DNA of 64,000 bases, taken from NCBI GenBank assembly GCA_934119955.1, contig CAKOSZ010000007.1, positions 5,192-69,191 of the forward strand. Direction: 5' to 3'. Each line of letters begins with the position of its first letter. The stretch's first letter is position 1. Below the pieces are notes generated by a model that saw only the letters and a list, made by a program, of their open reading frames with translations, searched no databases and was not told where the DNA came from. Both the position numbers and the translations under genes were made by a program. This document shows, one piece after another, positions 14,911-34,009 of this stretch. Source of the DNA: an uncultured Bacilli bacterium (GTDB lineage Bacteria; Bacillota_I; Bacilli_A; RF39; UBA660).

Positions 14911-14924
14911 ATATTTAGTCATTT

Positions 14925-16314: not shown

Positions 16315-16323
16315 GATGATTGT

Positions 16324-17869: not shown

Positions 17870-17968
17870 AATACTTGATAAGTTTAAGTATTCTTTTAAA
17901 TTTCTTTAAAGAGATTGACAAAACCATTATTTTATCTTAAAATTATATTGACAATAGGAGGAATATAG

Positions 17969-18397
17969 ATGGGAATGGAAAAATTAAAAGGTTTTTTTGG
18001 GGGATCAAACGAAGAAGTTAAAGATAATCGTAATATAAATGAAGATGAATACTATGAAATTGATGCAAAGGCATTTGCAGATAGCAGTAGTTCAAGTAAA
18101 ATGATTTTATTTGAACCACGTGCATATTCAGAAAGTCAACAAATAGCGGACTATTTAAAAAAAAGAAGTGCTGTTGTAGTTAATTTAAAAAGAGTTACTC
18201 CTGATCAAGCAAAAAGAATAGTTGATTTTTTAAGTGGAACTTTATATGCAATTAATGGAGGCTTACAAAAACTTGGAACAGGGATATTTTTGTGTACTCC
18301 AAATAACGTTAATGTAGAGGGTTCTATAAGCGATGAAGCAAAAAATAGTACTGTAAAAAAAGAAGTTAAAAATGATGAAGAAGAGGTTGACTGGTAA
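17969..18397 (+). CDS. sepF: cell-division protein SepF
   Basis: DUF552-type C-terminal domain ([32 protein letters not shown]...[23 protein letters not shown]). Confidence 0.7.
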
Positions 18398-18407
18398 CCT
18401 CTTTTTT
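18383..18407 (+). terminator. rho-independent terminator of sepF
   Basis: GAGGTT-GACTGGT-AACCTC followed by TTTTTT, overlapping the stop codon. Confidence 0.65.
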
Positions 18408-18987: not shown

Positions 18988-19680
18988 ATGTTTTTAAGTA
19001 TTATAAATTTTTTAAAAGAATTATTCTTTTTTACAGGTAGTTATTCTAATAATATTTTTCCAGATCCCCTAACTGATGAAGAAGAGGAAAAATGTATTAA
19101 AAAAATGCAAAATGGAGATAAGGAAGCAAGAAATAAGTTAATAGAACACAATTTAAGATTGGTTGCCCATATTGTAAAGAAGTTTGAACATGATATAAAT
19201 ATTCAAGATGATTTAATAAGTATAGGTACAATAGGACTTATTAAAGGAATAGATACATATTCAAGTAATAAAAATGTTAAATTAACTACATACTGTGCTA
19301 GGTGTATTCAAAATGAAATCTTGATGTATTATAGAAGTAATAATAAATATAATAAAAATATTTCTATAAATGATAGTATAGGTTATGATAAAGATGGAAA
19401 TGAAATAACTATAATTGATGTTTTAAAGTCTGATAAACCAGATTTTGCTCTTGATTTGTATGAAAAAGAAAATATTAGATTACTAAGTGAATATGTAAAA
19501 GTTTTAAATAAAAGAGAAAAAGAAATAATAACTTACCGTTATGGTTTAAATAATAATGATGAATTAACACAAAAAGAGATTGCTAAGAAATTACATATTT
19601 CAAGAAGTTATGTTTCAAGGATTGAGAAAAGAGCACTTACAAAGATGTTAAGAGAATTTATAAAAAATAAACAAGATTAA
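18988..19680 (+). CDS. sigK: sporulation sigma factor SigK (pro-sigma-K, uninterrupted)
   Basis: Near-identical blocks to B. subtilis SigK: pro-sequence ...NNIFPDPLT, then ARNKLIEHNLRLVAHIVKKFE, LISIGTIGLIKGIDTY and HISRSYVSRIEKRALTKM. A CATATACT -10-like element sits ~17 nt upstream, consistent with a SigE/SigK-type promoter. Confidence 0.85.
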   Translation: MFLSIINFLKELFFFTGSYSNNIFPDPLTDEEEEKCIKKMQNGDKEARNKLIEHNLRLVAHIVKKFEHDINIQDDLISIGTIGLIKGIDTYSSNKNVKLTTYCARCIQNEILMYYRSNNKYNKNISINDSIGYDKDGNEITIIDVLKSDKPDFALDLYEKENIRLLSEYVKVLNKREKEIITYRYGLNNNDELTQKEIAKKLHISRSYVSRIEKRALTKMLREFIKNKQD

Positions 19681-19715
19681 TATATAAATGATTAAAAAGA
19701 CGTATTAAAAAGAAT

Positions 19716-19746
19716 AAAACTATTGAAATAAAATAGTTTTTTTTGT
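19716..19746 (+). terminator. rho-independent terminator of sigK
   Basis: AAAACTATT-GAAATAA-AATAGTTTT followed by a T-run. Confidence 0.7.
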
Positions 19747-19763
19747 ATAATTTAGGTATAAGT

Positions 19764-19792
19764 TTGACAAAAAGTGTAAAATATGATAAAAT
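19764..19792 (+). promoter_or_regulatory. sigma-A promoter of the first gene of the T4SS-like block
   Basis: TTGACA, 17 nt, then TGA-TAAAAT (extended -10). AAAGGAG lies 9 nt before the ATG at 19821. Confidence 0.55.
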
Positions 19793-19820
19793 ATGGCCAA
19801 TTAAAAAGGAGTGGGATAGT

Positions 19821-21575
19821 ATGGAAGAACAATTAAAAATGTATGATGAAATATTTAGAGTAGTAGGGGAGAGTTTAGAAGAAAAACTTACTAAACTTAA
19901 TTATGAGAATTATGAAAAATTAGATTCAACAGACCTAGGCAAGGAAAAAAAGAAGAAATTTAATGAAAAAATAGAAGAATATTTTTCTATGTATAGGGAT
20001 ACAACTCGTCGTGATAGTACAGAACCAGGTTATGTTGCTTTTAAGGAAAAATTAAGCTATTTAAATAAAAAGCTAAAAGATGAAGGAAAAGATCAAATTG
20101 AAAATGCAGAGGACTTCTTCAATTTTAAAAAGAAATTAGAAGAAGAAAAAGAAAAAGAAAAACATGATACACCTAATGATGAAAGTAAGAGTGATGATGC
20201 ACCAAAACACGTGGATACTGAACCTAGTAAAAAAATGCCTGATAAAAAAGGAAAAGTAAATAGTTGGTGGGCTGAAAATATCAAGCCAACTGTAAAACGT
20301 TGGATGAAGTTTGTTGGCGGTGTTGCTGGAGTTGCACTTCTTGCTTCTAGTATTGCTGCTCCTGGGAATATACCATTATTGTTACTTTTGTCCGGTGTTG
20401 TAGAAGGAGTATTACTAGGTGTAAAAGAATTACCAACTGTTATTAAATTTGTTACGTTGCTTCCACGTAAAGGAATAGATTTTATTAAGTCGTTAAAAGA
20501 AAAGAGCAAGGAAAAACAAAAAGGAAAGAAAAAGAATAAAAAAAGAAAAAAACAAAAAAGTAATTCTAGTTCAAGAGAATCAGTTGAAGATTATGAGAAA
20601 ACATTATCTGAAGGTATGATACATGATGATGAAAAAAAAGAAAATGATATATCTGTTGACGAAAAAACAGAAGAAGATATGACCACTGCTTTAGATAATA
20701 TACCTACCGATGAAAAATCGGAAGAAGATAAAGCAGAAGAAGATATGACTACTGCTTTAGATAATATGCTTACTGATGAAAAATCAGAAGAAGATAAAGT
20801 AGATGATATATCTACTGATGATAAATCAAAAAGTGATGTAACTCCAGACTTGCCAGTTAGCAATGCAGATATCAAAGAACAAAGAGAACAAAAAATACAA
20901 AGATTAAAGAATACAAAACAACGATTAGTTGAAGCAAAGGAAAGACTAAGAAAACAAAAAGAAGAGCAAACAAAGCAAGAAAATGGTGTTCAAGATAAAA
21001 GCGATGTTGTGACTCATTCTAGTGGAACACATGAAAATATTATTGATCGACAATTAAATGCGCTTGCTGACAATCATGTAGGGTATACAGGTAATTATGA
21101 TGAAACTGATTTAGAAAAACGTATTATAGTAGAAGATGAACTGAAAAAGCTTAATGAACAAATTGCACAACTTTCAAATTCAAGAAATTATGATGGTAAT
21201 TATGACGAGACAGAAATTGAAAAACAAGCATTGATAGAGCGTAAAAATCAATTGGAAAAATTTATTATGTCTAAAAAGAGTCCTGCAATGCAAACAGCTG
21301 TAATAGATGATGTTCGTACGCAGTCACGAATTTCAAAATTACCTTCTCAAAGTGATGATGTTGAAAAGATAAATTCAAAAATAAATGAGCTTTCAAGTTT
21401 GTTAGGTAAGTCTAATTATGTTCCAGAAGCAGAAAAAAATAAAGATAAAGAATATATTGAATTGTCAAGAGAATTAGAAGAATTAAAAAAAACAAGAGAA
21501 AAAATAATACAACAAAAAAATATTGAAAGCATACAACAATCAGAAAATCAAGAAGAATTTAGTAGGAAAATGTGA
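19821..21575 (+). CDS. membrane-anchored coiled-coil protein with a lysine-rich linker and acidic tandem repeats (T4SS-associated, unknown function)
   Basis: Central TM helix (VGGVAGVALLASSIAAPGNIPLLLLLSGVV), a KKKNKKRKKQK stretch, two 22-aa EEDMTTALDN... repeats, and a long heptad-rich C-terminal region. The ORF track's start at 19743 lies upstream of the promoter, so the start is taken at 19821. Confidence 0.45.
   Translation: MEEQLKMYDEIFRVVGESLEEKLTKLNYENYEKLDSTDLGKEKKKKFNEKIEEYFSMYRDTTRRDSTEPGYVAFKEKLSYLNKKLKDEGKDQIENAEDFFNFKKKLEEEKEKEKHDTPNDESKSDDAPKHVDTEPSKKMPDKKGKVNSWWAENIKPTVKRWMKFVGGVAGVALLASSIAAPGNIPLLLLLSGVVEGVLLGVKELPTVIKFVTLLPRKGIDFIKSLKEKSKEKQKGKKKNKKRKKQKSNSSSRESVEDYEKTLSEGMIHDDEKKENDISVDEKTEEDMTTALDNIPTDEKSEEDKAEEDMTTALDNMLTDEKSEEDKVDDISTDDKSKSDVTPDLPVSNADIKEQREQKIQRLKNTKQRLVEAKERLRKQKEEQTKQENGVQDKSDVVTHSSGTHENIIDRQLNALADNHVGYTGNYDETDLEKRIIVEDELKKLNEQIAQLSNSRNYDGNYDETEIEKQALIERKNQLEKFIMSKKSPAMQTAVIDDVRTQSRISKLPSQSDDVEKINSKINELSSLLGKSNYVPEAEKNKDKEYIELSRELEELKKTREKIIQQKNIESIQQSENQEEFSRKM
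20669..20800 (+). repeat. 2 x 66-bp in-frame tandem repeat inside the coiled-coil protein gene
   Basis: GAAGAAGATATGAC(C/T)ACTGCTTTAGATAATAT...GATGAAAAATC(G/A)GAAGAAGATAAAG(C/T)A is repeated head-to-tail. Confidence 0.8.
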
Positions 21576-21912
21576 ATCTAGAACATAGTAGTTATTGATA
21601 CTTACTAATGTATTGAGGTAAAATACATAGAATAATAATTAGTACAAAAATAATTAATTTGAGGGAGGTCAAATAATATTTGACTTCCTTTAATATTGCA
21701 AAAATTATCGTTGCTATAAAAATGATTTATTTATGAAGATTAATGTGTAGTGAAAAGTAGTTTAGTTGAATTATAAAATTATGATTTTTACTTTACAAAT
21801 GAAGAAAAATTTAGTAATATATTTGTGTATTTATTTAAAAAAGTTTACATTTTTGAATTGAAATGTTATACTTAAATATATAGTAATTAAATCTTTTTGT
21901 TTGGAGGTATTT

Positions 21913-24093
21913 ATGCTAATATTATCAATTTTCGATGGATTAATAGAAGGTCTTAATGATGCTTTGCGTGCTTTTTTTATGACAATTGATCAAATAGTGT
22001 ATTGGTTTATAGAAATTATTTTTCAATTAATTATGGATTTAGCAAATACAGAAATATTTACACAAACTACTATTGATGTATTTGCTAAGCGTATATATGT
22101 AATACTGGGATTAGTAATGGTATTTAAAATGATGATATCGTTTGTTCAAATTCTAATTGATCCAGATACAATGACTGATAAAGAAAAAGGTGTAGGAGCA
22201 GTTTTAAAAAGAGTTGTAATCTCATTAATCTTGATAGTCTTAGTTCCATCAATATTTTCTCTTGCAAGGGAGGTCCAATCGTATATTTTACCTGTTATCC
22301 CGAGAGTTATAATGGGAGTTAATACTCCTGATCAAGAGGAAGTAATAGAATCAAGGGTTGGAAGAATTATGGCTTGGTATTCTTTTTTGCCGTTTTTTGG
22401 TTACGAAGGAACATGTAATGATGGTTCAATTATTTCATATTATTCTGATGATGGTTCTGATATGACTTCATCTGATGTTGTTATTTCTTCTGTAAATGAT
22501 GCATATATAAACATTAATCGTAAAGATAACGAATGTGGCGGAGGAGCTTTTCATTATGTGTATAGTTATAAGTGGATTATTTCAACTATTGTAGGAGCGT
22601 ATTTATTATATACATTGGTTACCGTTGCAGTTCTTACTGCAAAAAGAGCAATTAAACTTGGAATTTGTGAATTCATTGCGCCAATTCCAATAGCAAGTTA
22701 TATCGATCCTAAAACATCTAAATCAACTTTTGATAAATGGGTAAGTACTAGTATAAAAGTATATCTTGATTTGTTTATACAGTTAATAGTAGTATACTTT
22801 GTTGCTTTTGTTTTTACTGTTATTGCAAAGAAAGAAAATGTAGCGATTATTGTTGCTAATACTGGTAGCTTTTTTAGAGCTACACTTGTTATATTATTTA
22901 TTATTGTAGGATTAGTAAATTTTGTTAGAGAATTTCCTAAATTTTTATCTGATTTATTAGGACTTGGTACAAACGGAGATATTGCCAGTATATTTAAAGG
23001 TGCTGGTTGGAAACAGGTTGGTGGAACCTTGGCTGCGCCTGCAGCTGCTATAAGTGCTGGGCTTTCAGCATCTAACTATTCTAGAAGAAAAGGTGAACCT
23101 GCTCTTAAAGCAGTCGGTAGAGGATTAAGTGCAGGATTTAGAGGTGCGTCGGCATCATTTGGGGCAGCAAGTAGTGGCAAAGGGTTAAAAGAAGTTTATG
23201 GAACTCGTGAAAAGGTTCATGGTGCTTCAATGAGAAGAATTAATAGAGCATATGCAAAAAGTCAACAAAAAGATGATTATAAAAAACATATGAAAATTTA
23301 TCAAGAAGCACAACCAGAATTAGAAAATGCAAGAAGTAATCTTCTTGAAAGTAGACAAGCTGCAGCAGAGTCTTGGAGTAAATATATAGAAGCGAGAGAA
23401 AGAGGGGATAATAACGCAGCGAATATACATAAAATGGATTATGATAATTTTAAATCTGCGGAAGCTCGTTATCAAAAGGAAGTTGAAAAATTGGAGGCAA
23501 TAAAAAAACCTATTCGTCCTACTTCATATGGCATTGGAAAAGCATCTGCAATGGCTAAAAGTTTTGTAGGAACACCTGTTCCAGATTCTAAAACGTATAC
23601 AGAAGCCGCTAAAATTATGATGAGCGGAAAGAAAATATTTAACGATGCTAAAGTGAAAGTTACTGACGATCCTACTTTAATTCGAGATCGATTTGAAATT
23701 AAGGATAAAAATGGTAGAAGTTATGGGGTGCATTCGTTTGCTGAGGTTTATGCAGCACATAATCAGGCAGGAATTAGTGGAAGTGCTGAACTTGATGGGG
23801 AATCATATACTTCTGCTGAATTAGAAACGATTTATGGCGAGGCCTTAAAGAAAGCAGCAACGTTATATGTTAATGGTGTACAGGAAGGAACAGTTGATAA
23901 TGGTACTATGAAGCAGGATATTAATATTTTTGAAAAGTCACTTGCAAATGAAATGATAATTGATTCTACCGATAGAGGACTTATTACTTACGATGAAAAT
24001 AGACCTGGTGAATTCCTTAAGGGTGCCGATGAAGTTGCTAGAACTTTCGATTCGCGTGCTCAAGATTTAAGAGCAGTTGAAGAAAATAAATGA
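21913..24093 (+). CDS. VirB6/TrbL-like polytopic membrane protein (PrgH/TcpH/Tn916-Orf15 class)
   Basis: At least 6 TM helices in the N-terminal two-thirds, an extracytoplasmic Cys-containing loop, and a long hydrophilic C-terminal domain. It sits immediately upstream of the VirB3/VirB4 homologues. GGAGG lies before the ATG at 21913. Confidence 0.5.
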   Translation: MLILSIFDGLIEGLNDALRAFFMTIDQIVYWFIEIIFQLIMDLANTEIFTQTTIDVFAKRIYVILGLVMVFKMMISFVQILIDPDTMTDKEKGVGAVLKRVVISLILIVLVPSIFSLAREVQSYILPVIPRVIMGVNTPDQEEVIESRVGRIMAWYSFLPFFGYEGTCNDGSIISYYSDDGSDMTSSDVVISSVNDAYININRKDNECGGGAFHYVYSYKWIISTIVGAYLLYTLVTVAVLTAKRAIKLGICEFIAPIPIASYIDPKTSKSTFDKWVSTSIKVYLDLFIQLIVVYFVAFVFTVIAKKENVAIIVANTGSFFRATLVILFIIVGLVNFVREFPKFLSDLLGLGTNGDIASIFKGAGWKQVGGTLAAPAAAISAGLSASNYSRRKGEPALKAVGRGLSAGFRGASASFGAASSGKGLKEVYGTREKVHGASMRRINRAYAKSQQKDDYKKHMKIYQEAQPELENARSNLLESRQAAAESWSKYIEARERGDNNAANIHKMDYDNFKSAEARYQKEVEKLEAIKKPIRPTSYGIGKASAMAKSFVGTPVPDSKTYTEAAKIMMSGKKIFNDAKVKVTDDPTLIRDRFEIKDKNGRSYGVHSFAEVYAAHNQAGISGSAELDGESYTSAELETIYGEALKKAATLYVNGVQEGTVDNGTMKQDINIFEKSLANEMIIDSTDRGLITYDENRPGEFLKGADEVARTFDSRAQDLRAVEENK

Positions 24094-24126
24094 TTATATA
24101 TAATTTTAGGAGTGTGATATTAGAAT

Positions 24127-24450
24127 ATGAACAATCAATATTTAATACCTGCGAATACAAAAAGGGGTCAGTTGATATTTGGTATATTTATGCTAAATGA
24201 TCTTATAATTTTTGGAATAGGAATAGGAATTACTTTACTTGCCTTAGTTATAATGTCCTTAACCGATACAATGAGTAATATTACTTCTATTTTGGCAATT
24301 CTTCCTGGATTAGTTGCGGTATTTCTTGTTTTTCCGTTTCCAAATTATCATAATATTAGAACAGCAATTGGAGAATTAATAGCCTTTTATACTAATAGGC
24401 AAAAATATAAATGGAGAGGATGGTGTGCAAGTTATGAATTCAAAGACTAA
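24127..24450 (+). CDS. small two-TM protein, VirB3/PrgI/TcpE-like
   Basis: 107 aa with two hydrophobic helices. It is placed directly before VirB4, as in Gram-positive T4SS operons. Confidence 0.35.
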   Translation: MNNQYLIPANTKRGQLIFGIFMLNDLIIFGIGIGITLLALVIMSLTDTMSNITSILAILPGLVAVFLVFPFPNYHNIRTAIGELIAFYTNRQKYKWRGWCASYEFKD

Positions 24451-25033
24451 TTTAGTTAATAACAATCAAAATAGAAATCAAAGTACTAAAAAAACAACGT
24501 CGCCTTATACAGAAGATTGGGTAAATGTTAAAGGAATTAAAGATGGAGTAATATTATTACCAAATCGTGATATGGTTACGGGTGTTAAAATTTATCCTAG
24601 AAATATATTTATTTTAGACCCAATTCAGCAAGAAAGTGTTTTAAATGCAATGAGAAATTTTTACAATTTGATGAATTTTGAATTTTGGTTAATTGTTGCT
24701 GATAGACCTGTTGATATATCAGTTTATCAATCACAACTTCAAATAATGCTTCAAAATGCAACAAATCCTGCACAAATAAAAATAATCGCTCAGGATATAG
24801 AAAAAGCCAATATGTTTATTAATAATCAAGTTGTTGATACAGAGTACTATATTTTATTTAAAGAAAAAAAACAAGATGAAATTGAACGCAAAATTCGTTT
24901 AATTATAAATGGTCTTGCAGGATGTGGACTTAATTCTAGTCAGACATCAAATGATGATTTAAGAACAATTTTAGATAATTTCTTAAATGGTGGTGTGAGA
25001 ACTGATTTTGGAACGGTGGTGTTAGAAAAATGA
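24434..25033 (+). CDS. VirB4-family ATPase, N-terminal domain encoded as a separate ORF
   Basis: Resembles a VirB4/TrbE N-terminal domain (VKIYPRNIFILDPIQQESVLNAMRNFYNLMNFEFWLIV). Its stop overlaps the next ATG as ATGA (25030-25033). Confidence 0.5.
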   Translation: MNSKTNLVNNNQNRNQSTKKTTSPYTEDWVNVKGIKDGVILLPNRDMVTGVKIYPRNIFILDPIQQESVLNAMRNFYNLMNFEFWLIVADRPVDISVYQSQLQIMLQNATNPAQIKIIAQDIEKANMFINNQVVDTEYYILFKEKKQDEIERKIRLIINGLAGCGLNSSQTSNDDLRTILDNFLNGGVRTDFGTVVLEK

Positions 25034-26817
25034 GTATATTTAAAAGTGAAATTGCTCCTAAGGGGTTACAGTTTAATTCAGGTGATTTTAGAATTAGCGA
25101 TAAGTATGCAACTATATTAACTGCCATATCTTATCCAAAATTTATTACACCAGGCTATCTTGCTGATTTAACTAATATTTCAGGTGTTAAGGTTGTAATT
25201 AAGCATATACCTGTTCCTTTTTCATTGATGCAAAAAATGATAAATAAACAAATTGCTGATTATAGACAACGTTATCAAGATGAAAAAGACAAAACTATGC
25301 AAGAAAGATATCGTCAAGAATATGAATCACTTGAGTATTTTGTTTCTATGCTTGCTGCTAATCAATCAACAATATTTGATTTTCAAATGCATATTATGAT
25401 AACTGCTGATAGCAAAGAAGAATTAGAACTAAAAAAGACAAATGTTAAAAATTATTTAGATTCTATGGAATTAAGAGCAGTTTCTCTTAGATTTGAACAA
25501 GAAACTATATTTAAATCAATGTTGCCAATTTTTCCAAAACAAAAAGTTGAGCAAAGGATTGGTACAATCATTCCATCAGTCACCGTTGCTGGAATGTATC
25601 CGTTTGTTTTTGATTCAATTAAAGATCCAGGATTATCAAATTTGATAGGCGTTGACTTTTCTGGGGGAGTAATTTTATTCAATCAGTTTTTATACAAATA
25701 TAGAAAAGAAATGAACAGAAATAATGCTAATATGATTATTCTTGGTGGATCTGGTTCTGGTAAGTCAACAGCAGCTAAATTATTACTTCGTGGCCATATT
25801 AGAAATGGTTGTCAAATAGTTGCAATTGATCCAGAAAACGAACTTGAAGATATGACAAGACTTTATGGTGGCGATGTTGTTGATCTTGGAAAAGGCGGAG
25901 CATATGGTATGATAAATCCACTTGAAGTTGTATTAGATGCTGATGAAGAAGATATTAAGCAAGGCCTTGGACATACTGTTTTAACAAGAACTCTTCAATT
26001 CTTAAAGGCATTCATGCGCTATTATTATCCTGATATTGAAGATGATGTTCAAACATTATTTAGCGAAATTGTTCAAGATACATATAGACGTTTTGAAATT
26101 GATTTTACAAGCGACTTTACTAATAAAACAAGTGAGGATTTTCCTACTTTTTCAGATGTTTATGCAACGATAAGAGGACGTTTAACATCCATGACTGAAA
26201 AAACTCATGAACGTGATATTATGGAACGTCTTGAACTTAAAATAAGACCATTTGTTCGTGAACTTAGTTATTATTTTAATGGTCATACAACAATTAGAAA
26301 AGATAGTAATTACATAGTATTCAATATAAAAGAATTAATGAATCAAGATACAAATATTAAAAATGCTTTATTTTTTAACATTTTAAAATTTGCTTGGGGA
26401 TTATGCTTAGATAGAAGTCGTGATACTATTTTAATGGTAGATGAAGCGCATGTTCTTTTAGCAGGCAAAAATGTTTTAGGTGCTGATTTCTTGGCACAGG
26501 TTCAAAGAAGAAGTCGTAAGTATAATACAGGAACCATTATTATTACTCAACAACCTACTGACTTTTCAGATCCAGAAGTTATTACACAAGGAAAAGCAAT
26601 TTTTGATAATGCATCATATTACTTAATAATGCAACTTAGAAAACAAGCGGTTGAAGATTTATCACATTTAGTTGATTTAAATGAAAATGAAATAGAAAGT
26701 ATAAAGAGATACTCGCAGGGGCAAGCATTGTTTGTATGTGGTGCAAGACGTATGCAAATAGACGTTGTTGCAACACAAGATGAACTTGATTCGTTTGGTT
26801 CAGGTGGAGGATTATAG
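25030..26817 (+). CDS. VirB4-family conjugative ATPase (C-terminal ATPase part)
   Basis: Walker A MIILGGSGSGKST, Walker B/DExD ILMVDEAH, and a CagE/TrbE/VirB4-like YPKFITPGYLADL segment. Confidence 0.8.
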   Translation: MSIFKSEIAPKGLQFNSGDFRISDKYATILTAISYPKFITPGYLADLTNISGVKVVIKHIPVPFSLMQKMINKQIADYRQRYQDEKDKTMQERYRQEYESLEYFVSMLAANQSTIFDFQMHIMITADSKEELELKKTNVKNYLDSMELRAVSLRFEQETIFKSMLPIFPKQKVEQRIGTIIPSVTVAGMYPFVFDSIKDPGLSNLIGVDFSGGVILFNQFLYKYRKEMNRNNANMIILGGSGSGKSTAAKLLLRGHIRNGCQIVAIDPENELEDMTRLYGGDVVDLGKGGAYGMINPLEVVLDADEEDIKQGLGHTVLTRTLQFLKAFMRYYYPDIEDDVQTLFSEIVQDTYRRFEIDFTSDFTNKTSEDFPTFSDVYATIRGRLTSMTEKTHERDIMERLELKIRPFVRELSYYFNGHTTIRKDSNYIVFNIKELMNQDTNIKNALFFNILKFAWGLCLDRSRDTILMVDEAHVLLAGKNVLGADFLAQVQRRSRKYNTGTIIITQQPTDFSDPEVITQGKAIFDNASYYLIMQLRKQAVEDLSHLVDLNENEIESIKRYSQGQALFVCGARRMQIDVVATQDELDSFGSGGGL

Positions 26818-26826
26818 AAGTAAAGG

Positions 26827-29397
26827 ATGGTGAGTCGTATGACAGAAAATTTTGAAAGCAAGCAACAGAATAAACAAGATATGCAAGATGCTGGTGCTAA
26901 AACGGCTCACGTTGCTGGTAAGGTAGCTGCAAGTTATTTTGGTGGAACCTTGGGAAATGTTGCTTATGATAAAATTTTTCAGACTAAACTAGGACAAAAA
27001 ATAGAACAAGGAGCTGGAAAAGTTATTTCAAGAGTTCCTGGCGTAAATAAATTAAATAAAAAATTGAATGATACAGGTGCGGTTGATGCTGCTGATAAAG
27101 CAGTTGATTTAGTTGGAGGAAAAGGAGCGGCAAAGGCTGGTAAAAGTGTGAATTCACTTCCAAAATCTGGAATTGGTGCTGCCAGTAAAACGACTAAACC
27201 ACTTGGTAGAGGCGGAAGAAAAACAACCGGTGATGGTTCAACTCCAAAAGCATTAGAAAATCGCAAAAAAGGTGGTTATGCAAAAGATTTCTTATCAAGA
27301 AATAAGACAAATAGTACCAGTAGCACAACAAGTACTGAAGAAACTTCTTCTGATACAAATAACGAAGAAGAAGAAAATGAAACAAACGAATTAGGTGAAA
27401 GTAAAGATATATTTAGTTTTGGTTTTTCTAAATTTAAGTTAAAAATTTTGCTAATTTTTGGTTGTGGTGGTTTTATTATTTTATTGTTATTAGTGCTTAT
27501 GGTAACTACTAGTATGTTTGCAACTACTGATACATCACTTGCTCCAATTTCAAGTATAAATTCTGATGAAACTCAAAATCATTATTATGATAATGAAAAA
27601 TATCCTGAATTATATGAACAGGAAATTAAATTTAATAATTCGATTGGTAATAAAGAATCATCTAGTGGAATAATTGGTGAATACCAAGATAAGTATGGGG
27701 TAACACTGGATGTTTATATGTTAGAAGCAACTTTACTTTATAGAGATTATGCTTATTATTTAGTACGACTTGATAATATAAGCGAAGAAGAATATAAAAA
27801 ATTAACGGAATCTGATCCAGGTTATCATCAAAAAATATATAATTTTGAGGAAGCAGCAAAATATATTAACACAGTTGCTGAATTGATGATATCATCAACT
27901 GGAGAAGGTGAATATGTAAATTATTACACTGATATAACTAAAAATGGTGAATATTATAATAAATTATTGAATAGTTCTTTTTTTACTGAGTATTATTCAA
28001 AAGTATTAGCATATGAAAAATATAGTGATCAGACAAAATTAGTTGATGAAATATTTGATTATGCTGAATTTATGCGTTATGCAGTGGAAGGAGAAAAAGT
28101 ATCTTCATATATAATTAGTGACTCTATGAAAGTTCATTTGCAAACATGTGCAAAGTATAAATATAAAATAATTAATAATATAAGTATATATGATAATCCA
28201 GCGGCAACAAATAATGAAGCAGAAGCACCTTCAATAGTTTCTTTGGTTGATTACGGGGTAGGAGTTCTTTATGGAGAACTTAGTAGTTATACAAAGAGTT
28301 ATGCTAATGGACAAGGTGATAATATGAAAGAAGGGTTAAAAGCTCTTTTAGTTGCTTCTTATAGTTTTATGCTTGGTCAAAGATCATATGGACATACTGG
28401 TCTTGATTTAAAACAGCCTGATTTGTATTATCCGACTGGTAATTGTCGAATGGTATGCTGTAATCCTAATACAAATTCTCATTATGCCAAGTATAATGGT
28501 GATAAACATGGAACTTGTATGTCAACAACTAGTTCGTCTGCTAATCATCCGGCTTTAAGTCAGGATCAATTAACTAAGCTTCGGGAACTAGTATCAGAGG
28601 TTTTTGGTGAAGTTATGGTAGAAAAAGGAGTAACTACAAGTACATTTTCTGGTTATAAAGATATTAAATATGGAAATTATTATGATTCTATAAATAATTC
28701 TGATTGTGGTGCTAATTGTTTAGGTCAAGAAGAGGCAATACAAGATTCCAAAAATGGAATGACATATCGTGAAATACTTGCTAAATACTATGATTCTACT
28801 AAATATGACATCATTAATATAAAAGAAGGATTATATGTTGAAAATGCAAATTATAGTAATGCTTCATATGATGGAAATGTTATATTTTATGATCAAGGAG
28901 ATTATAGCAAGGTTAATTTCTGTGGTCAAAGTAATAAACATATATCATCATCTGGATGTGGTGTTACATCTATGGCAATCGTTGCTTCTTCGTTTACAGG
29001 AAATAAAACTTATGATCCAGTATATATGATGAATTTGGCTTATAGTATGGGAGATTGTGGCTCAGGAATACGAGGTACAAATGCTTCTTTCTTTAAAAAA
29101 GCAGCTCAAAAACTTGGCTTTGGTTATAAGTATATTGGTAAAAAAAATGCTAGTCAAGTTGTAGATGTACTTAAAACCGGAAAATCAATGGTTATTGCTC
29201 ATATGGATAAAGGACATTTTACAGATAATGGTCATTACATAGTTTTGACGGCTGTTAATGAAAATGGTAAAGTATATGTTCATGATCCTAATAATAGAGG
29301 AAATAGTAAAAACAAGAAAACTGGAAATGGTTGGTATGATTTAGATATGATAGCAGGGGAACTCAAAAGTGGTTTTTACGTTATAACGAAAGGGTGA
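26827..29397 (+). CDS. T4SS-associated cell-wall hydrolase with a C-terminal C39-like (papain-fold) peptidase domain
   Basis: Disordered G/A/K-rich N-terminus, one TM helix (LLIFGCGGFIILLLLVLMV), a large extracytoplasmic region, then catalytic-type Cys (SSSGCGVTSMAIVASSF) and His (GHYIVLTAVNENGKVYVHDPNN) motifs. Confidence 0.5.
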   Translation: MVSRMTENFESKQQNKQDMQDAGAKTAHVAGKVAASYFGGTLGNVAYDKIFQTKLGQKIEQGAGKVISRVPGVNKLNKKLNDTGAVDAADKAVDLVGGKGAAKAGKSVNSLPKSGIGAASKTTKPLGRGGRKTTGDGSTPKALENRKKGGYAKDFLSRNKTNSTSSTTSTEETSSDTNNEEEENETNELGESKDIFSFGFSKFKLKILLIFGCGGFIILLLLVLMVTTSMFATTDTSLAPISSINSDETQNHYYDNEKYPELYEQEIKFNNSIGNKESSSGIIGEYQDKYGVTLDVYMLEATLLYRDYAYYLVRLDNISEEEYKKLTESDPGYHQKIYNFEEAAKYINTVAELMISSTGEGEYVNYYTDITKNGEYYNKLLNSSFFTEYYSKVLAYEKYSDQTKLVDEIFDYAEFMRYAVEGEKVSSYIISDSMKVHLQTCAKYKYKIINNISIYDNPAATNNEAEAPSIVSLVDYGVGVLYGELSSYTKSYANGQGDNMKEGLKALLVASYSFMLGQRSYGHTGLDLKQPDLYYPTGNCRMVCCNPNTNSHYAKYNGDKHGTCMSTTSSSANHPALSQDQLTKLRELVSEVFGEVMVEKGVTTSTFSGYKDIKYGNYYDSINNSDCGANCLGQEEAIQDSKNGMTYREILAKYYDSTKYDIINIKEGLYVENANYSNASYDGNVIFYDQGDYSKVNFCGQSNKHISSSGCGVTSMAIVASSFTGNKTYDPVYMMNLAYSMGDCGSGIRGTNASFFKKAAQKLGFGYKYIGKKNASQVVDVLKTGKSMVIAHMDKGHFTDNGHYIVLTAVNENGKVYVHDPNNRGNSKNKKTGNGWYDLDMIAGELKSGFYVITKG

Positions 29398-30089
29398 ATA
29401 TGAAAAAAATATTATTTTTGCTTCCTTTGATTTTTTTAATAACAGGTTGTAGAGTTAATTATAAACTTGAAATTAATAAAGATTTAACTGTTACAGAGAA
29501 AATTAATATGAGCGAGTCAGCAGAATTTTTTTCTAATAGATATAAAGAATTACCAAAAACAGTAATTGACTCGTTATTTAATTCGGGAAATCGTAAACAA
29601 ACTTTAATTGATAACAATTACGAGTATGAAGATTCTAAAATGAATAATTATCCTGCTATTTTAGCAACTAAGCATTATTCTTCTTTAGAAGATTTTTCTA
29701 AAAATACTATTTTTAAGAAAGAATTTTTTAATTCAGTAACAACTAAAATTGATAATAATTTGGTTACTTTTGAAGCAACTGATTTGGTTGAATATGATAC
29801 AGAAGATGTTGATTTATATGAGGTATCAGGTTGTAATATTTCAATAAAAGTTCCATTCGTTGTTACAAGTAACAATGCAGATAGTTATGATGCTAAGACT
29901 AATACTTATACATGGAAAATATCAAGCGAAAAACCAAAAGAAATTAAAATAACATTTGATAAAAATAAGATATATGTGTATAATATTGTCATGTATATTT
30001 CTATGTTTATATTAGCATTAATTATTTTGATAATAATAATACTTACTTTAAAAATGCGAAATAAAAATAAGATAAATAATAATTTTTAG
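29394..30089 (+). CDS. lipoprotein with a C-terminal TM anchor (possible VirB8/PrgL-class component)
   Basis: Lipobox LITGC after the signal peptide and a C-terminal TM (LALIILIIIILTL). Translationally coupled to the hydrolase (ATGA overlap at 29394). Confidence 0.45.
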   Translation: MNMKKILFLLPLIFLITGCRVNYKLEINKDLTVTEKINMSESAEFFSNRYKELPKTVIDSLFNSGNRKQTLIDNNYEYEDSKMNNYPAILATKHYSSLEDFSKNTIFKKEFFNSVTTKIDNNLVTFEATDLVEYDTEDVDLYEVSGCNISIKVPFVVTSNNADSYDAKTNTYTWKISSEKPKEIKITFDKNKIYVYNIVMYISMFILALIILIIIILTLKMRNKNKINNNF

Positions 30090-30111
30090 ATAAATGTTTT
30101 AGGAGGCATGA

Positions 30112-32463
30112 ATGAAATTAAAAATGCGTTTTGATGCAGATGATATGAAAAAATTTTTACTTATATGTTTAGTACTTTTATATATTGTTTGTATTGCTAT
30201 TTCAAATTTGTCATCAGTAACCTCAACTGGTGAATTTACTGGTTTAAATCCTCTACCAGCGTTTAGTGCTGATATGATTACGGCAACTCTTGCTTTTTAT
30301 GTAATTGCTCTTGTTGCATTATTACTTAGTTGCAAAAGTTATTTCTTTGATTTTGAAAAAGGAATAGGTTTTACAACTGAAAAAAAAGCAAGTGATGGTT
30401 ATAGTAAATGGTGTGATGCCAAGGAAATGAAAAAAGAATTAAAATTAGTTTATCCAACAGATGTTAAAACTGATGCGGCTGGTGTTGCTTTAATAAATGA
30501 TGGTAAAAAAATTTATGTTGATAATAGTGAGTATCATAATTTAGTAATAGGAGCAACTGGTTCTGGTAAAACAACTGCTATAATTTTTCCTATGATAGAA
30601 CTTCTTGCTAAGCATGGAGAGTCAATGATTTTAACCGATCCCAAGGGTGAATTATATGAAAAAAAGAGCAATATGTTACGCTCTAAGGGTTATAATATTG
30701 TACTTTTAAACTTTCGTGATCCTGGTAAAGGAAATTCATGGAATCCTCTTAGTTTACCATATAAATTATGGAAAGAAGGAAATCAAGATAAGGCAACTGA
30801 GTTACTAGAAGACTTATCAGCTAATATCTTGTATGATGAAAATAATAAAAATGGCGATCCCTTCTGGGAAAAAACATCTGCCGATTATTTTTCTGGATTA
30901 GCACTTAGTTTATTTGAAGATGCTAATGAAGATGAAGTTAATTTAAATAGCATAAGTTTAATGACAACTATTGGGGAAGATAAAATAGGTGGTAGTACTT
31001 ATATAAAAGAGTATTTTAAAGATAAAGATCCTAATAGTGCTGCTTATATAAGCGCCTCTTCTACAATTCTTGCCCCTAATGAAACTAAAATGAGTATTAT
31101 AGCAGTTTTTAAACAAAAAATTAAATTATTTGCTTCCCGTGTTAACTTGTCTGAAATGCTATCACATAGTGATTTTGATATTGGTGACATAGGTAGAAAA
31201 AAAACAGCAGTATTTATAATTATTCAAGATGAAAAGAAAACATATCATTCATTAGTTACAATTTTTATTAAACAAGTTTATGAAACTTTAATAGATGTTG
31301 CTCAGAGTAATAATGGTAAACTTCCAATAAGAACTAATTTTTTAATGGATGAATTTGCAAATATGCCGCCTTTAAAAGATGTAACTACGATGATTACAGC
31401 TGCTCGTAGCCGTTTAATGCGTTTTACTATGATTATTCAAAACTTTGCCCAATTAAATGAAGTATATGGGGAATCCAATGCTGAAACTATAAAAAGTAAC
31501 TGTGGTAATTTAATATATTTGATATCAACAGAATTGAGAGCACTTGAAGAAATTAGTAAAATGTGTGGTGAAATTAAAGTTAAAACGGGAAAAGATGAAA
31601 AAGAAAAAGAAGAAACAAGACCACTTGTTACAATAAGTGATTTACAAAAATTAAAAATGAATGAAGTTATAATTAGAAGATTTCGTATGGCTCCATTCAA
31701 AACTAAACTTACTCCCGATTATAAAATGAATTGGGGACGTACTTATAAGGAAGTGTCAACTCAAAACATAAAAGAAAGACCTAGACGTGAAGTAAAAGTA
31801 TTTAATCTTAAAGGTTACGTTGAAGCTAAGAAAAAAGAAAATAATCCATTTGGTGGGGGATTTCCATCTGGATTTGGTGGATCACCATCATTTGGTGGAG
31901 GATTTGGCTCTGATTTTTCAGATATGTTTGGAGGCATGAAAAATGATTTTCCAGCTACATCTAGACCAAGTAATGAATCTAAAATTGATGTTGATAGAAT
32001 ACTAAAAAATATTGATGCTAAAATAGCAGAACTTGAAGAAGAAGAGAAAAGATTAGATCAAGAAGATAATAAAGAAAATGATAATTCTATTTTAACAGCA
32101 CTTGAAGATGAAGATAATCAAGTTCAAAGTGTTGATAATGATATTGAAAATACTAAAAGCCAAACAAATAATAATTCTGAAATACTTCCTGATAATGAAT
32201 TTAAAAATCTTATTTCAAGCTTTGATAACGACGAATTCATTAAAAAAGAGGATAACGATAAGTTAGAGACTACGGATACTCCTCAAAATATCGATGAATT
32301 GATTGATAAAATTAAAGAACAAAGTGGTGATGAATTACTTAACAAAGTTAAAGAAGAAAATCATAATGTTAAAGAAAATATTAAACCAAACATGAATTTA
32401 GTAGAAGAAAACAAGTATAAAGAAGTAAGTGATGATGAATTTTTTGATGACTTTTTTGATTAA
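30112..32463 (+). CDS. VirD4/TraG-family type IV coupling protein
   Basis: Two N-terminal TM helices, Walker A GATGSGKTT, the family motif DPKGELY, and a Walker B region (FLMDEFAN). A Gly-rich, acidic disordered C-terminal tail. Confidence 0.8.
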   Translation: MKLKMRFDADDMKKFLLICLVLLYIVCIAISNLSSVTSTGEFTGLNPLPAFSADMITATLAFYVIALVALLLSCKSYFFDFEKGIGFTTEKKASDGYSKWCDAKEMKKELKLVYPTDVKTDAAGVALINDGKKIYVDNSEYHNLVIGATGSGKTTAIIFPMIELLAKHGESMILTDPKGELYEKKSNMLRSKGYNIVLLNFRDPGKGNSWNPLSLPYKLWKEGNQDKATELLEDLSANILYDENNKNGDPFWEKTSADYFSGLALSLFEDANEDEVNLNSISLMTTIGEDKIGGSTYIKEYFKDKDPNSAAYISASSTILAPNETKMSIIAVFKQKIKLFASRVNLSEMLSHSDFDIGDIGRKKTAVFIIIQDEKKTYHSLVTIFIKQVYETLIDVAQSNNGKLPIRTNFLMDEFANMPPLKDVTTMITAARSRLMRFTMIIQNFAQLNEVYGESNAETIKSNCGNLIYLISTELRALEEISKMCGEIKVKTGKDEKEKEETRPLVTISDLQKLKMNEVIIRRFRMAPFKTKLTPDYKMNWGRTYKEVSTQNIKERPRREVKVFNLKGYVEAKKKENNPFGGGFPSGFGGSPSFGGGFGSDFSDMFGGMKNDFPATSRPSNESKIDVDRILKNIDAKIAELEEEEKRLDQEDNKENDNSILTALEDEDNQVQSVDNDIENTKSQTNNNSEILPDNEFKNLISSFDNDEFIKKEDNDKLETTDTPQNIDELIDKIKEQSGDELLNKVKEENHNVKENIKPNMNLVEENKYKEVSDDEFFDDFFD

Positions 32464-32498
32464 AACTAATAGATTTTGCAATTTATTAGTTTTTTTCT
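32464..32498 (+). terminator. rho-independent terminator after the coupling-protein gene
   Basis: AACTAATA-(12-nt loop)-TATTAGTT followed by TTTTTTT. Confidence 0.65.
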
Positions 32499-32566
32499 AT
32501 ATAACAGTCTTGATAATGAATAGATAATTTGCTATAATGAATATATATTATAGAGGTGTTTAAGAA

Positions 32567-33994
32567 ATGAATATGAAAAAGTTTAAAAAGCTTTTATTAC
32601 TACTATTAATAAGTGGTATATATGTTAATGTATGGGCAGAAAATGAAAATACAGGTGAAACTAAAAATGAAACTGAGGAAGTTATAACTAAAAAAAGTAA
32701 TGATACAACTTTAAAAGATGTATATTTTAATGATGAAAAAGTAGTTTGTTCTAATTATGTTTGTGAGAAAATAATAGAAAATAATGATATTAATAAAGTA
32801 ACAATTACTTATAAGACAAATGATGCAAAAGCAACAGTATCAGCTGAAAAACTAGAAAAAGAATTAAAGAATGGTTTAAATGAATTTAAGGTAACAGTAA
32901 CTGCTGAGGATGGTACAAGTAAAGATTATACTTTTAAAATAACTAAAAAAGTTTTATCAACTGATAGTTCTTTAAAAAAAATAACAGCAAATGGTAAAGA
33001 AGTAACTTTAAAAAAAGATGTTACTAAATATAATGTTAGTGTTAGTTTTGCTGCTAAAAAAATAGAAATTGAAGCAACGCCAAATTCTAGTACTGCTAAA
33101 ATTGATGGATTTAAAAGCAATAAAATATCATATGATTTCTTTGATACAGAAAAAGAAATTAAAATTAAAGTAATATCAGAAGCAGGAGATATGACAACTT
33201 ACGTTTTAAATGTTACTAAGCGTGAAGAACAAGTTGTAACTTTAAAAAATATTACTATTAAAAATGCTAAAATTAATTTTGAAAGTGGTGTCTATGATTA
33301 TGAATTATCAGTTCCTAAGAGTGTTGAAAAACTAGAAATAGATGCTACACCAACCAATCAAGATGCCAAAGTTACTATAACTGGTGCTGATAAATTACAA
33401 ATAGGTGAAAACACAATAACAATTGAGGTTGAAAATGATGGTAATACTAAAACTTATACAATCAAAGTTACAAGACTTGAAAGTGATGATAAAAGTTTAG
33501 CCAACCTAAAAAGTATTGAAATAGAAAAATATAAATTAGATTTTAAAGAAGATAAATATGAATATGATTTAAAAATAGGCGATGATAATTACTTGGTTAT
33601 TAAGGCACTTCCAAAAGTAGATACAAGTGATGTACAAATAACAGGTAATTTAGATTTAGAAAATGGTAGTATTATTAAAATTAAAGTTCAATATAACGAT
33701 GAAACAACAAGTATTTATAAAATTAATATAATTAAAGAAGCAGTAACTGAAAAGAAAAATAATACTTCTAAATTAATAATTATAATTGTTATAACTTTAA
33801 TTATAATTGCCATTGTTGTAATTTTAATTATGCAACTTAAAAATAAGAAAAACAAAAATGATGTAAATAAAAACGAAAAAAAAGAGAAAAAAGAAATAGA
33901 TAAAAAAGAAACAGAAATAGAAAGTGAAAATAAAAATAAAAAACAAAGTATTATTACTCTTAGCGATGATGAAGAAATAGAAGATATTATTTAA
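32567..33994 (+). CDS. surface protein with four cadherin-like beta-sandwich repeats and a C-terminal TM anchor
   Basis: Signal peptide, then 4 x ~85-aa repeats ((T/S)LK.I...Y...V....(K/E)IEI(E/D)ATP...AK(V/I)...). Hydrophobic anchor LIIIIVITLIIIAIVVILIM and a charged tail. Confidence 0.55.
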   Translation: MNMKKFKKLLLLLLISGIYVNVWAENENTGETKNETEEVITKKSNDTTLKDVYFNDEKVVCSNYVCEKIIENNDINKVTITYKTNDAKATVSAEKLEKELKNGLNEFKVTVTAEDGTSKDYTFKITKKVLSTDSSLKKITANGKEVTLKKDVTKYNVSVSFAAKKIEIEATPNSSTAKIDGFKSNKISYDFFDTEKEIKIKVISEAGDMTTYVLNVTKREEQVVTLKNITIKNAKINFESGVYDYELSVPKSVEKLEIDATPTNQDAKVTITGADKLQIGENTITIEVENDGNTKTYTIKVTRLESDDKSLANLKSIEIEKYKLDFKEDKYEYDLKIGDDNYLVIKALPKVDTSDVQITGNLDLENGSIIKIKVQYNDETTSIYKINIIKEAVTEKKNNTSKLIIIIVITLIIIAIVVILIMQLKNKKNKNDVNKNEKKEKKEIDKKETEIESENKNKKQSIITLSDDEEIEDII

Positions 33995-34009
33995 CAAGGG
34001 AATGATTTT

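Follow-up and report, generated by a model that had tools for sequence, protein, structure and literature searches.

A probable two-gene VirB4 ATPase, already known in kind, in a chromosomal type IV secretion cluster of uncultured gut Bacilli

The resemblance of TrsD to the N-terminus of VirB4 is already in the literature, in an account of Patescibacteria that reports thousands of TrsD copies, assigns the protein no function, and finds the TrsD homologs of Gracilibacteria away from virB4 (PMC12102498). Type IV secretion systems (T4SSs) of Patescibacteria are made of VirB4, TrsD, PrgI/VirB3 and VirB6, are chromosomal, usually lack a relaxase, and are found in hosts with reduced genomes; a TrsD-like gene adjoins virB4 in 1,664 of 2,272 cases (PMC12102498). 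In the relaxase-encoding Staphylococcus aureus plasmid pSK41, TrsD (227 aa) is followed after a 14-nt gap by TraE (672 aa), which covers only positions 265-893 of a VirB4 profile. More generally, plasmids of the pSK41/pGO1 type (MPF_FATA, pGO1 subclass) encode a soluble protein of ~200-230 aa just upstream of a short VirB4 of 600-670 aa, and this pair is located downstream of a small protein with two transmembrane (TM) segments. Plasmid pBMB67 of Bacillus thuringiensis, which carries a MobP3 relaxase, has the order PrgI-family protein, 227-aa protein, 630-aa protein, the last two in one frame, with the start codon 3 nt past the preceding stop; RefSeq names them "hypothetical protein" and "DUF87 domain-containing protein".

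Other relatives are single chains, namely PrgJ of pCF10 (Enterococcus faecalis, CD1110 family, 796 aa), and, at 839-894 aa, the VirB4 of Mycoplasma integrative elements (ICEs; Mbov_0397 family) and two fused database proteins, P0218 and P0251. In VirB4 of R388 (TrwK), the N-terminal domain comprises residues 15-400, is one structural unit, and binds VirB3 or the tails of VirB8 (PMC9259494). A Gram-positive T4SS ATPase encoded in two parts is also known from pIP501, where TraI and TraJ make up the coupling protein and the membrane-anchoring N-terminal part is encoded just upstream (PMC4981023); this concerns VirD4, not VirB4, and serves as an analogy only. Our literature search retrieved the Patescibacteria paper alone for TrsD (PMC12102498), no relevant account of a VirB4 split over two open reading frames (ORFs), and nothing relevant on type IV secretion in RF39; the passages of a 2025 T4SS review reached by keyword contain no mention of TrsD/TraD as the N-terminal part of VirB4. 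The notion is under-used, though not new.

The locus described here lies in a 64,000-nucleotide stretch of DNA from an uncultured Bacilli bacterium, which as a whole is called the window below. Instead of a single VirB4 chain of ~800 aa, it has two ORFs in different frames, as have all 80 relatives compared. The features are as follows.

21901-24093, + strand: 730-aa polytopic membrane protein (p730) in the VirB6/PrgH position, with at least five hydrophobic segments
24127-24450, + strand: 107-aa PrgI/VirB3-like small membrane protein (p107), with two hydrophobic segments
24434-25033, + strand: ORF1, 199-aa TrsD/TraD-like stand-alone protein matching the first half of VirB4's N-terminal domain
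25010-25021, + strand: Shine-Dalgarno-like stretch GGAACGGTGGTG for ORF2, within the end of ORF1, where it encodes G-T-V-V
25030-25033, + strand: ATGA stop/start overlap of ORF1 and ORF2, read from the sequence
25030-26817, + strand: ORF2, 595 aa, with the remaining half of that N-terminal domain and the complete ATPase C-terminal domain
25744-25767, + strand: Walker A motif GGSGSGKS (ORF2 aa 239-246), from motif search
26428-26448, + strand: Walker B motif ILMVDEA (ORF2 aa 467-473), from motif search
26827-29397, + strand: 856-aa cell-wall hydrolase-like protein in the PrgK/VirB1 position, with Pfam domain Peptidase_C39_2
29394-30089, + strand: 231-aa protein (p231) in the PrgL (VirB8-like) position, with N- and C-terminal hydrophobic segments
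30112-32463, + strand: 783-aa type IV coupling protein (T4CP; VirD4/TraG family), T4SS-DNA_transf E 2.5e-54

ORF1 starts at the ATG at 24434; an alternative GTG at 24425 would give 202 aa, the called length of database proteins P0001 and P0002, which are 99% identical to it. It has no TM segment. The positions that the initial annotation gave for both ORFs were confirmed, and the 794 aa counted for the two together agree with its estimate of ~795 aa, a VirB4-sized total. It had also assigned Walker A (near residue 240), Walker B and the C-terminal domain to the second ORF, and all three are there: the motifs at the residues listed, and the domain by the alignment of the solved VirB4 C-terminal domain (PDB structure: 4AG5, from T. 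pseudethanolicus) with ORF2 aa 201-593 (E 1.2e-55).

The top-scoring profile for each ORF is NCBIfam NF045975 (VirB4_plasma), which ORF1 matches at positions 92-276 of 894 (E 7.8e-14) and ORF2 at positions 296-891 (E 4.7e-107); on these values, the relationship is well beyond chance. The ~20 unmatched profile positions between the two ORFs correspond to ~18 unaligned residues at the C-end of ORF1 and the N-end of ORF2, so no VirB4 segment is missing. Thus the profile alignment proposed in the initial annotation finds the two ORFs collinear, and the VirB4-specific N-terminal domain of ~400 aa is present and complete over ORF1 and ORF2, with no internal gap. The equivalog cut-off of this profile, 590 bits for VirB4 of Mbov_0397 family ICEs, is reached neither by ORF1 (50.3 bits) nor by ORF2 (358.8 bits); judged by these scores, the window VirB4 is related to that family, not a member of it.

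Further searches agree. ORF2 covers positions 187-730 of 752 in the profile of the CD1110-family VirB4 and contains the Pfam domains AAA_10 and P-loop_TraG, while phmmer matches ORF1 to the N-termini of the full-length fused P0218 and P0251 (839 and 868 aa), which are also the closest sequences to ORF2 outside its own family (32% identity). An AlphaFold2 (AF2) model of ORF1 (pLDDT 79.8), compared with PDB by Foldseek, has R388 TrwK/VirB4 as all of its top 14 matches and nothing else significant, with probabilities of 0.96-1.0 and with low TM-scores (0.32-0.37) and rmsd above 7 A. Searching PDB with the ORF1 sequence gave noise alone (E >0.4), and a local Pfam scan of it, relaxed to E<=10, assigned no family. 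Precomputed matches to Pfam PF26593 ("TraC-like"), labeled "weak" where marked, exist for nearly all close relatives; at E<=10 it was found for none of ORF1, P0109 and P0010 in a Pfam copy that probably lacks this model.

Because 4AG5 aligns only from ORF2 aa 201 onward, and the N-terminal domain in R388 spans residues 15-400, the cut falls inside the N-terminal domain, in a variable linker mid-way through its ~400 aa. ORF2 aa ~1-200 are the second half of this domain, and aa ~201-595 the ATPase C-terminal domain. The initial annotation had equated the first ORF with the N-terminal domain and the split with the boundary of that domain; the match itself stands, but ORF1 covers the first half only, and the boundary between the N- and C-terminal domains lies ~200 aa inside ORF2.

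Set beside the described systems, the two-gene VirB4 appears genuine but already known in kind, its counterpart being the TrsD/TrsE pair of staphylococcal plasmids. The split had initially been called unusual, yet the same layout recurs in pSK41, in pBMB67 and in a Mycoplasmatota plasmid, and the split points of all compared systems fall in one variable linker. VirB4 has apparently been cut by nature, more than once, at this defined linker inside its N-terminal domain. ORF2 and the short VirB4 of pSK41/pGO1 alike lack the first ~200-260 profile positions, although ORF1 and ORF2 share only ~17% and ~24% identity with the pSK41 proteins, and pSK41 differs from the window in its intergenic gap (ATGA overlap here), its plasmid location (chromosomal here) and its relaxase (none found here). 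The TrsD/TraD profile NF041427 (cut-off 200 bits) gave nothing for ORF1 at E<=0.01; pSK41 TrsD scores 227.6 bits against it and the pBMB67 homolog 40.2 bits. In profile-profile comparison (hhalign), the ORF1 family aligns with pSK41 TrsD over 155 columns (probability 94.5%, E 8.3e-8). The pBMB67 proteins are 27-28% identical to ORF1 and ORF2 (E 3e-8 and 4e-68), and the 227-aa one is also hit by two VirB4 profiles, in their N-terminal parts, and by that of TrsD (E 3e-10). By the profile-profile comparison, the bridging pBMB67 protein, the gene order and the split point, ORF1 qualifies as a remote homolog of TrsD.

The gene order of pCF10, prgH-prgI-prgJ(796 aa)-prgK-prgL...pcfC, runs parallel to that of the window: a polytopic membrane protein comes first, the small PrgI gene overlaps the start of the VirB4 gene, as p107 overlaps ORF1, and a hydrolase of ~860 aa (PrgK, 871 aa), a protein of ~210-230 aa and a T4CP occupy matching positions. 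PrgJ, a single chain of 796 aa, equals in length the two ORFs together (794 aa). ORF2 aligns to PrgJ 225-773, and the ORF1 family is collinear with the PrgJ N-terminus, without significance (hhalign E 0.1).

The 80 relatives are species-representative genomes, 58-84% identical in ORF1. The split is present in every one of them and a fused form in none, and the best 120 database clusters for ORF1 are without exception stand-alone proteins of 172-222 aa. The ORF1-ORF2 gene pair was also found again in independent metagenome assemblies. Both ORFs are under purifying selection, with dN/dS of 0.11-0.21 for ORF1 and 0.08-0.10 for ORF2. Splits of the error type are seen at two loci of the data set: at L005, only one assembly breaks the upstream gene (742 aa) into pieces of 324 and 412 aa, and at L034 ORF2 is interrupted.

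The junction reads GAAAAATGAG, with the ATG of ORF2 at 25030-25032 and the TGA of ORF1 at 25031-25033; the 4-nt overlap and the -1 frame of ORF2 relative to ORF1 are as first annotated, and a run of five A adjoins them. The search for the same split in relatives, also proposed there, shows that the junctions vary: 64 of the 80 have ATGA, another four offer it as an alternative start, seven have TAATG, and the remainder are spaced by +1, -8 or -14 nt. Most relatives read GCCTGTATGA, GCAGAATGA or similar, and the A-run is not conserved, four or more A preceding ATGA in ~3 of 80. Upstream of the ORF2 start, nearly all 80 have GG[AG]ACGGTG[GA]TG (a few with 1-2 substitutions), in which GGTGAT and GGTGGTG could base-pair with the 3' end of 16S rRNA, making this a candidate ribosome-binding site. 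Genetic code 4, in which TGA encodes Trp and the ORFs might be fused, was considered and rejected: ORF1 would meet a TAA ~24 codons further on, the long ORFs have no in-frame TGA, and the sole tRNA-Trp found has the anticodon CCA.

A virB4 of ~795 aa could have been cut in two by an indel introduced in sequencing or assembly, or by a frameshift that inactivated the gene recently; the five-A run at the junction and the occurrence of error-type splits in these data (the upstream gene of L005, ORF2 of L034) speak for this. Such an accident would, however, have to recur in all 80 species-level genomes and all 120 best protein clusters, in relatives that were sampled independently and differ in junction sequence, mostly without the A-run; it would also have to leave both halves under purifying selection with no segment missing, and to give ORF2, in every relative, a start codon preceded by a Shine-Dalgarno-like motif. 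The probability of this reading is close to nil, and it is effectively refuted; the initial preference for a natural split over a frameshift error or pseudogene is borne out by the cluster and genome counts, the selection and the complementary profile coverage. Programmed -1 ribosomal frameshifting on A-AAA-TGA would produce a fused 794-aa VirB4, alone or beside the separate products: with the stop codon in the A site, tRNA-Lys could slip from AAA at 25028-30 to AAA at 25027-29, and the next codon would be the ATG of ORF2, giving, to judge from the sequence, an exact ORF1-ORF2 fusion. Against it are the scarcity of A-runs of at least four leading into ATGA (~3 of 80 relatives), the junctions with TAATG or with spacings of +1, -8 or -14 nt, which put the ORFs in another frame relation, the in-frame stop of pBMB67 with the start codon 3 nt on, and the 14-nt gap of pSK41. 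Since the junction geometries differ, independent initiation fits all of them and a single recoding mechanism does not, which leaves frameshifting highly improbable.

A further possibility is that ORF1 is an independent accessory protein (adaptor or regulator) derived from the N-terminal module of VirB4, and that ORF2 is a naturally short, working VirB4. TraE of pIP501 is, we assume, a short VirB4 of this sort with a TraD gene upstream. Reviewed as the VirB4-like ATPase of its plasmid, this protein is reported to hydrolyze ATP and to bind ssDNA in vitro, in assays for which it is not stated whether TraD was present (PMC4981023). Since TrsD has no assigned function and lies away from virB4 in Gracilibacteria, and some TrsD genes of Patescibacteria are likewise apart from it (PMC12102498), a TrsD-like protein may act on its own. 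Yet ORF2 lacks exactly that region of the profile which ORF1 provides, a variable linker connects the two parts at the same place in fused relatives, and the domain they would form is a single structural unit, binding VirB3 or the tails of VirB8, in R388 (PMC9259494). Tight overlap, an ORF1 that adjoins ORF2 in all 80 genomes, and a place between the VirB3-like and ATPase genes are, moreover, the pattern of complex subunits. An accessory ORF1 is thus unlikely, and the locus very probably encodes a genuine two-gene VirB4, with a TrsD/TraD-like ORF1 supplying the first ~200 residues and ORF2 being a short VirB4 similar to TrsE/TraE.

The genes for p107, ORF1 and ORF2 form a head-to-tail series in which p107 overlaps ORF1 by 17 nt and ORF1 overlaps ORF2 by ATGA. 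Given these overlaps, and a Shine-Dalgarno-like sequence for ORF2 that lies inside ORF1 close to its stop codon, translation of the three genes is probably coupled, with similar yields of each protein. ORF1 and ORF2 would join non-covalently and rebuild a VirB4 protomer, since both pieces belong to a single chain in R388 VirB4 and in the fused relatives. From what is known of VirB4 (PMC9259494), the rebuilt N-terminal domain would dock the ATPase on the membrane proteins that resemble VirB3 and VirB6; as a hexamer, the ATPase would then join the coupling protein in powering a Gram-positive (MPF_FATA-type) T4SS.

The neighboring genes are of this type: VirB4, a T4CP, a PrgI/VirB3-like protein, a polytopic membrane protein and a cell-wall hydrolase are encoded in one cluster. 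The p730 gene is directly upstream of p107-ORF1-ORF2 in 78 of 80 related genomes; with no match to p730 in Pfam or NCBIfam, its position and topology suggest a VirB6-like role. p107 is present in all 80 relatives. An HMM of its family weakly matches a pBMB67 protein that RefSeq annotates as "PrgI family" (E 3e-6 in a database of four sequences, hhalign probability 43%) and the equivalent protein of the Mycoplasmatota plasmid (E 1e-11, hhalign probability 88%). The N-terminal Y-[LI]-I-P motif is shared; comparison of the p107 family with pCF10 PrgI gave nothing significant. In the 856-aa protein, Peptidase_C39_2 spans aa 696-822 (E 2e-12), and there is one hydrophobic segment. A VirB8-like role of p231 is likewise suggested by position and topology; a sub-threshold match to LppM is its only domain hit. 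The coupling protein also matches Pfam TrwB_AAD_bind and TraG-D_C, and its gene is seen downstream in 66 of the 80 relatives within the sequence available per locus.

The larger potential value of the locus is in its context, a T4SS found in many uncultured gut Bacilli with no relaxase visible in the window. Pfam domains of relaxases or integrases were found in none of 38 window ORFs, a set that includes all but one of the ORFs of at least 220 aa and a minority of the smaller ones; within this scope, the window does not show the relaxase together with integrase or replication functions expected of a conjugative element. Several of its large ORFs have no Pfam match, and housekeeping genes flank the T4SS cluster. 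It is conceivable, though on balance doubtful, that the two-piece VirB4 belongs to a chromosomal T4SS that lacks a relaxase, is inherited vertically and is clade-wide in AT-rich gut Bacilli with apparently reduced genomes. If so, it would parallel the co-opted T4SS of Patescibacteria, which belong to another phylum, whereas the window cluster retains an adjoining T4CP; the machine would serve not the self-transfer of a mobile element but, for example, DNA uptake or exchange or cell interaction, and a detachable TrsD-like module would be a conserved trait of domesticated T4SSs.

For annotation, a "hypothetical protein" of ~200 aa that precedes a "DUF87/ATP-binding protein" in this lineage is best read as the N-terminal module of VirB4, and the ORF1/ORF2 pair should not be marked as a frameshifted pseudogene. 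The natural cut would also let the membrane-docking half of the N-terminal domain be expressed and studied apart from the motor. Uncultured gut Bacilli species with a T4SS of the window type number at least several hundred, and the overlapping two-gene arrangement is likewise conserved across hundreds of species. The metagenome-assembled genomes (MAGs) that carry the split VirB4 are presumably RF39-like; those of the relatives are labeled Mycoplasma sp. CAG:877, Clostridium sp. CAG:451/CAG:710, Ca. Onthousia and "Tenericutes".

The VirB4 homologue of the window is encoded by two overlapping open reading frames, ORF1 and ORF2, which very probably represent a genuine two-gene VirB4 rather than a damaged single gene. 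Their positions are exactly those of the initial annotation, and the second frame carries both ATPase motifs assigned to it:

24434-25033, + strand: ORF1, 199 aa
25030-26817, + strand: ORF2, 595 aa
ORF2 residues 239-246: Walker A motif, GGSGSGKS
ORF2 residues 467-473: Walker B motif, ILMVDEA

If ORF1 starts instead with the GTG at 24425, it is 202 aa long, as called in near-identical database proteins. The junction reads GAAAAATGAG; ATG occupies 25030-32 and TGA 25031-33, so that ORF2 is in the -1 frame, as had been noted.

The two products are collinear on the NCBIfam model NF045975 (VirB4_plasma, 894 positions), where ORF1 matches positions 92-276 (E 7.8e-14) and ORF2 positions 296-891 (E 4.7e-107). 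About 20 profile positions left unmatched between the halves correspond to about 18 unaligned residues at the ORF1 and ORF2 ends; both ORFs are VirB4 pieces, and no internal segment is missing. On the CD1110-family VirB4 model of NCBIfam (752 positions), the ORF2 match begins at 187. Full-library phmmer search with ORF1 retrieved the N-termini of two full-length VirB4 proteins, P0218 and P0251 (839 and 868 aa). ORF1 was modelled with AlphaFold2 (mean pLDDT 79.8, exceeding 90 in the core) and the model compared with PDB using Foldseek; the top 14 matches were R388 TrwK/VirB4 chains (probability 0.96-1.0, E 3e-4 to 1e-2), and no other match came near significance. TM-scores to R388 VirB4 are low, about 0.35, and the structural match is therefore supporting evidence, not proof by itself.

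The cut does not coincide with the boundary of the N-terminal domain, where the initial annotation had put it. The solved VirB4 C-terminal domain (PDB structure: 4AG5) aligns to ORF2 residues 201-593, and in R388 VirB4 the N-terminal domain spans residues 15-400 and the C-terminal domain 400-823 (PMC9259494); the N-terminal domain is therefore divided between the two ORFs, with roughly its first half in ORF1 and its second half in ORF2 residues 1-200, while ORF2 residues 201-595 are the ATPase domain. When concatenated pairs from four split lineages (the window clade, pBMB67 of Bacillus thuringiensis, a Mycoplasmatota plasmid, and pSK41 of Staphylococcus aureus) were aligned with fused relatives, all split points fell in the same variable linker between two conserved blocks, occupied in fused proteins by 20-60 poorly conserved residues. 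The cut is thus at a sub-domain linker within the N-terminal domain, not at the boundary of the N- and C-terminal domains.

The same split is widespread in relatives. In a search of 5.8 billion proteins, each of the best 120 ORF1 clusters is a stand-alone protein, 172-222 aa long (76-99% identity), and the pair recurs in independent metagenome assemblies with differing junctions (L001, GTAGAATGAG; L004, CAATAATGAG). A one-genome-per-species collection contains 575 stretches encoding an ORF1 relative; in the best 80 of them (58-84% identity in ORF1, 69-94% in ORF2) the genes are split in every case and fused in none. Junctions in these 80 are ATGA in 64, TAATG in seven, ATGA with a second ATG 9 nt downstream in four, and +1, -8, -8 and -14 nt in single cases. 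One further locus of the 80, L034, has the ATGA junction and an ORF2 interrupted downstream; around 4621-5051, the best frame resumes 423 nt past the ORF1 stop and encodes only 407 aa, probably because of a local frameshift or assembly problem in this MAG.

This uniformity across the best 80 of 575 loci, the varied junctions, the stand-alone ORF1 clusters, and low dN/dS ratios (ORF1, 0.11-0.21; ORF2, 0.08-0.10; dS about 0.7-0.9) make an assembly error or a pseudogene almost inconceivable and bear out the natural split proposed initially; the ratios show that selection maintains both ORFs. Genuine error-type breaks in the same data look different. In one assembly, L005 (1057-3328), the gene of 742 aa that precedes the cluster is broken into 324 and 412 aa, and other samples have it unbroken in near-identical contigs (L004 and L006, 1100-3328); this is an error or pseudogene-type split, unlike that of ORF1 and ORF2. 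A programmed frameshift yielding a fused product is very improbable: about three of these 80 relatives share the run of five A seen in the window, and the frame relation varies, so a -1 frameshift is not a conserved feature. Just upstream of the ORF2 start, relatives retain GG[AG]ACGGTG[GA]TG, which encodes the G-T-V-[VM] end of ORF1 and is, by our reading, complementary to the 16S rRNA 3' end, and hence is a putative Shine-Dalgarno site for ORF2. That ORF1 is an independent accessory protein which does not complete ORF2 is also unlikely. The two are conserved genes under selection, complementary in VirB4 coverage.

In the favored two-gene arrangement, p107 (a two-TM, PrgI/VirB3-like protein), ORF1 and ORF2, whose genes overlap head to tail, would be made by coupled translation. 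ORF1 and ORF2 would bind non-covalently and rebuild a VirB4 protomer, since fused relatives carry the same pieces in a single chain and R388 has the N-terminal domain as one structural unit; the rebuilt domain may anchor the ATPase to membrane proteins of VirB3-like and VirB6-like type. The genes around them are collinear with prgH-prgI-prgJ(796 aa)-prgK-prgL...pcfC of pCF10.

The split had been called unusual, which does not hold. With tblastn, both halves are found adjacent in 36 B. thuringiensis/cereus plasmids; in pBMB67, a PrgI-family gene is followed by a 227-aa "hypothetical protein" and a 630-aa "DUF87 protein". The 227-aa protein matches the NCBIfam TrsD/TraD model (E 3e-10), and also VirB4_plasma positions 97-259 and VirB4_CagE positions 3-136. 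Likewise, pSK41 carries a TrsD/TraD-family gene (227 aa) immediately before that of its VirB4 homologue, TraE (672 aa), which covers VirB4 profile positions 265-893 only. The ORF1 family aligns to TrsD (hhalign probability 94.5%, E 8e-8), and Pfam has a candidate family for such proteins, PF26593, "TraC-like". The likeness of TrsD to the N-terminus of VirB4 is on record, and TrsD has been described as limited to the pGO1 subclass of MPF_FATA, with no function assigned; Patescibacteria have 2,272 homologues, of which 1,664 adjoin virB4 (PMC12102498). Keyword search of a 2025 T4SS nomenclature review found pIP501 traC placed adjacent to traE, and nothing on TrsD/TraD as the VirB4 N-terminal part among the passages retrieved. 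The split reading is under-appreciated, yet already known.

A Y-[LI]-I-P-x-[NR] motif (YLIPAN, YLIPKN, YIIPKR; IIPRN in pSK41) is common to the N-termini of the small two-TM proteins upstream of split VirB4 (window 24127-24450, pBMB67, pSK41, CP074574); beyond it, these proteins show hardly any detectable similarity overall.

Similarity does not sort fused from split forms. With 32% identity, ORF2 matches the fused P0218/P0251 slightly better than the split homologues of pBMB67 and pSK41 (24-28%), and ORF1 shares 38% identity with P0137, a fused fragment; as far as these identities indicate, the linker has therefore probably seen fission or re-fusion more than once.

The most interesting lead is the context of this type IV secretion system (T4SS), apparently chromosomal and without a visible relaxase. 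The window (G+C 25%) looks chromosomal, with the cluster flanked by housekeeping genes, + strand throughout, and a sigma factor upstream:

18988-34000, + strand: T4SS cluster
1-18400, + strand, upstream flank: tRNA cluster, PurB, SufB, AckA, EngB, SepF
34010-63420, + strand, downstream flank: FtsW, SpaA/thioester adhesin with sortase, TGT, Sua5, MutL
61061-62512: T2SSE-family ATPase

Pfam scanning of 38 window ORFs detected no relaxase or integrase domain. The core p730-p107-ORF1-ORF2 (p730 being a 730-aa membrane protein) is present in 78-80 of the best 80 of 575 related species, followed by the coupling protein T4CP in 66. The system looks clade-wide and chromosomal in uncultured gut Bacilli, and resembles the relaxase-less chromosomal T4SS of Patescibacteria (PMC12102498). 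L084 (OZ006970.1), a closed circular MAG chromosome of 1,517,539 bp with the cluster at 103-120 kb, would permit a complete relaxase/integrase search and measurement of the cluster-to-origin distance.

Between the sigma factor and p730, a 610-aa ORF (19743-21575) matches no family and has a recognisable homologue in one of the best 80 of 575 related loci; relatives carry a 719-742-aa gene at this position. This component is hypervariable and may be exposed at the surface. Just downstream of FtsW, an 869-aa SpaA/thioester-domain (TED) adhesin is followed by a sortase (35185-38428), which could serve the transfer system as its adhesin module or belong to a pilus locus unrelated to it. At 54044-62512, large proteins without family match, one with a weak VWA domain, precede the T2SSE-family ATPase and form with it a second secretion locus of the window, pilus- or competence-like in type.
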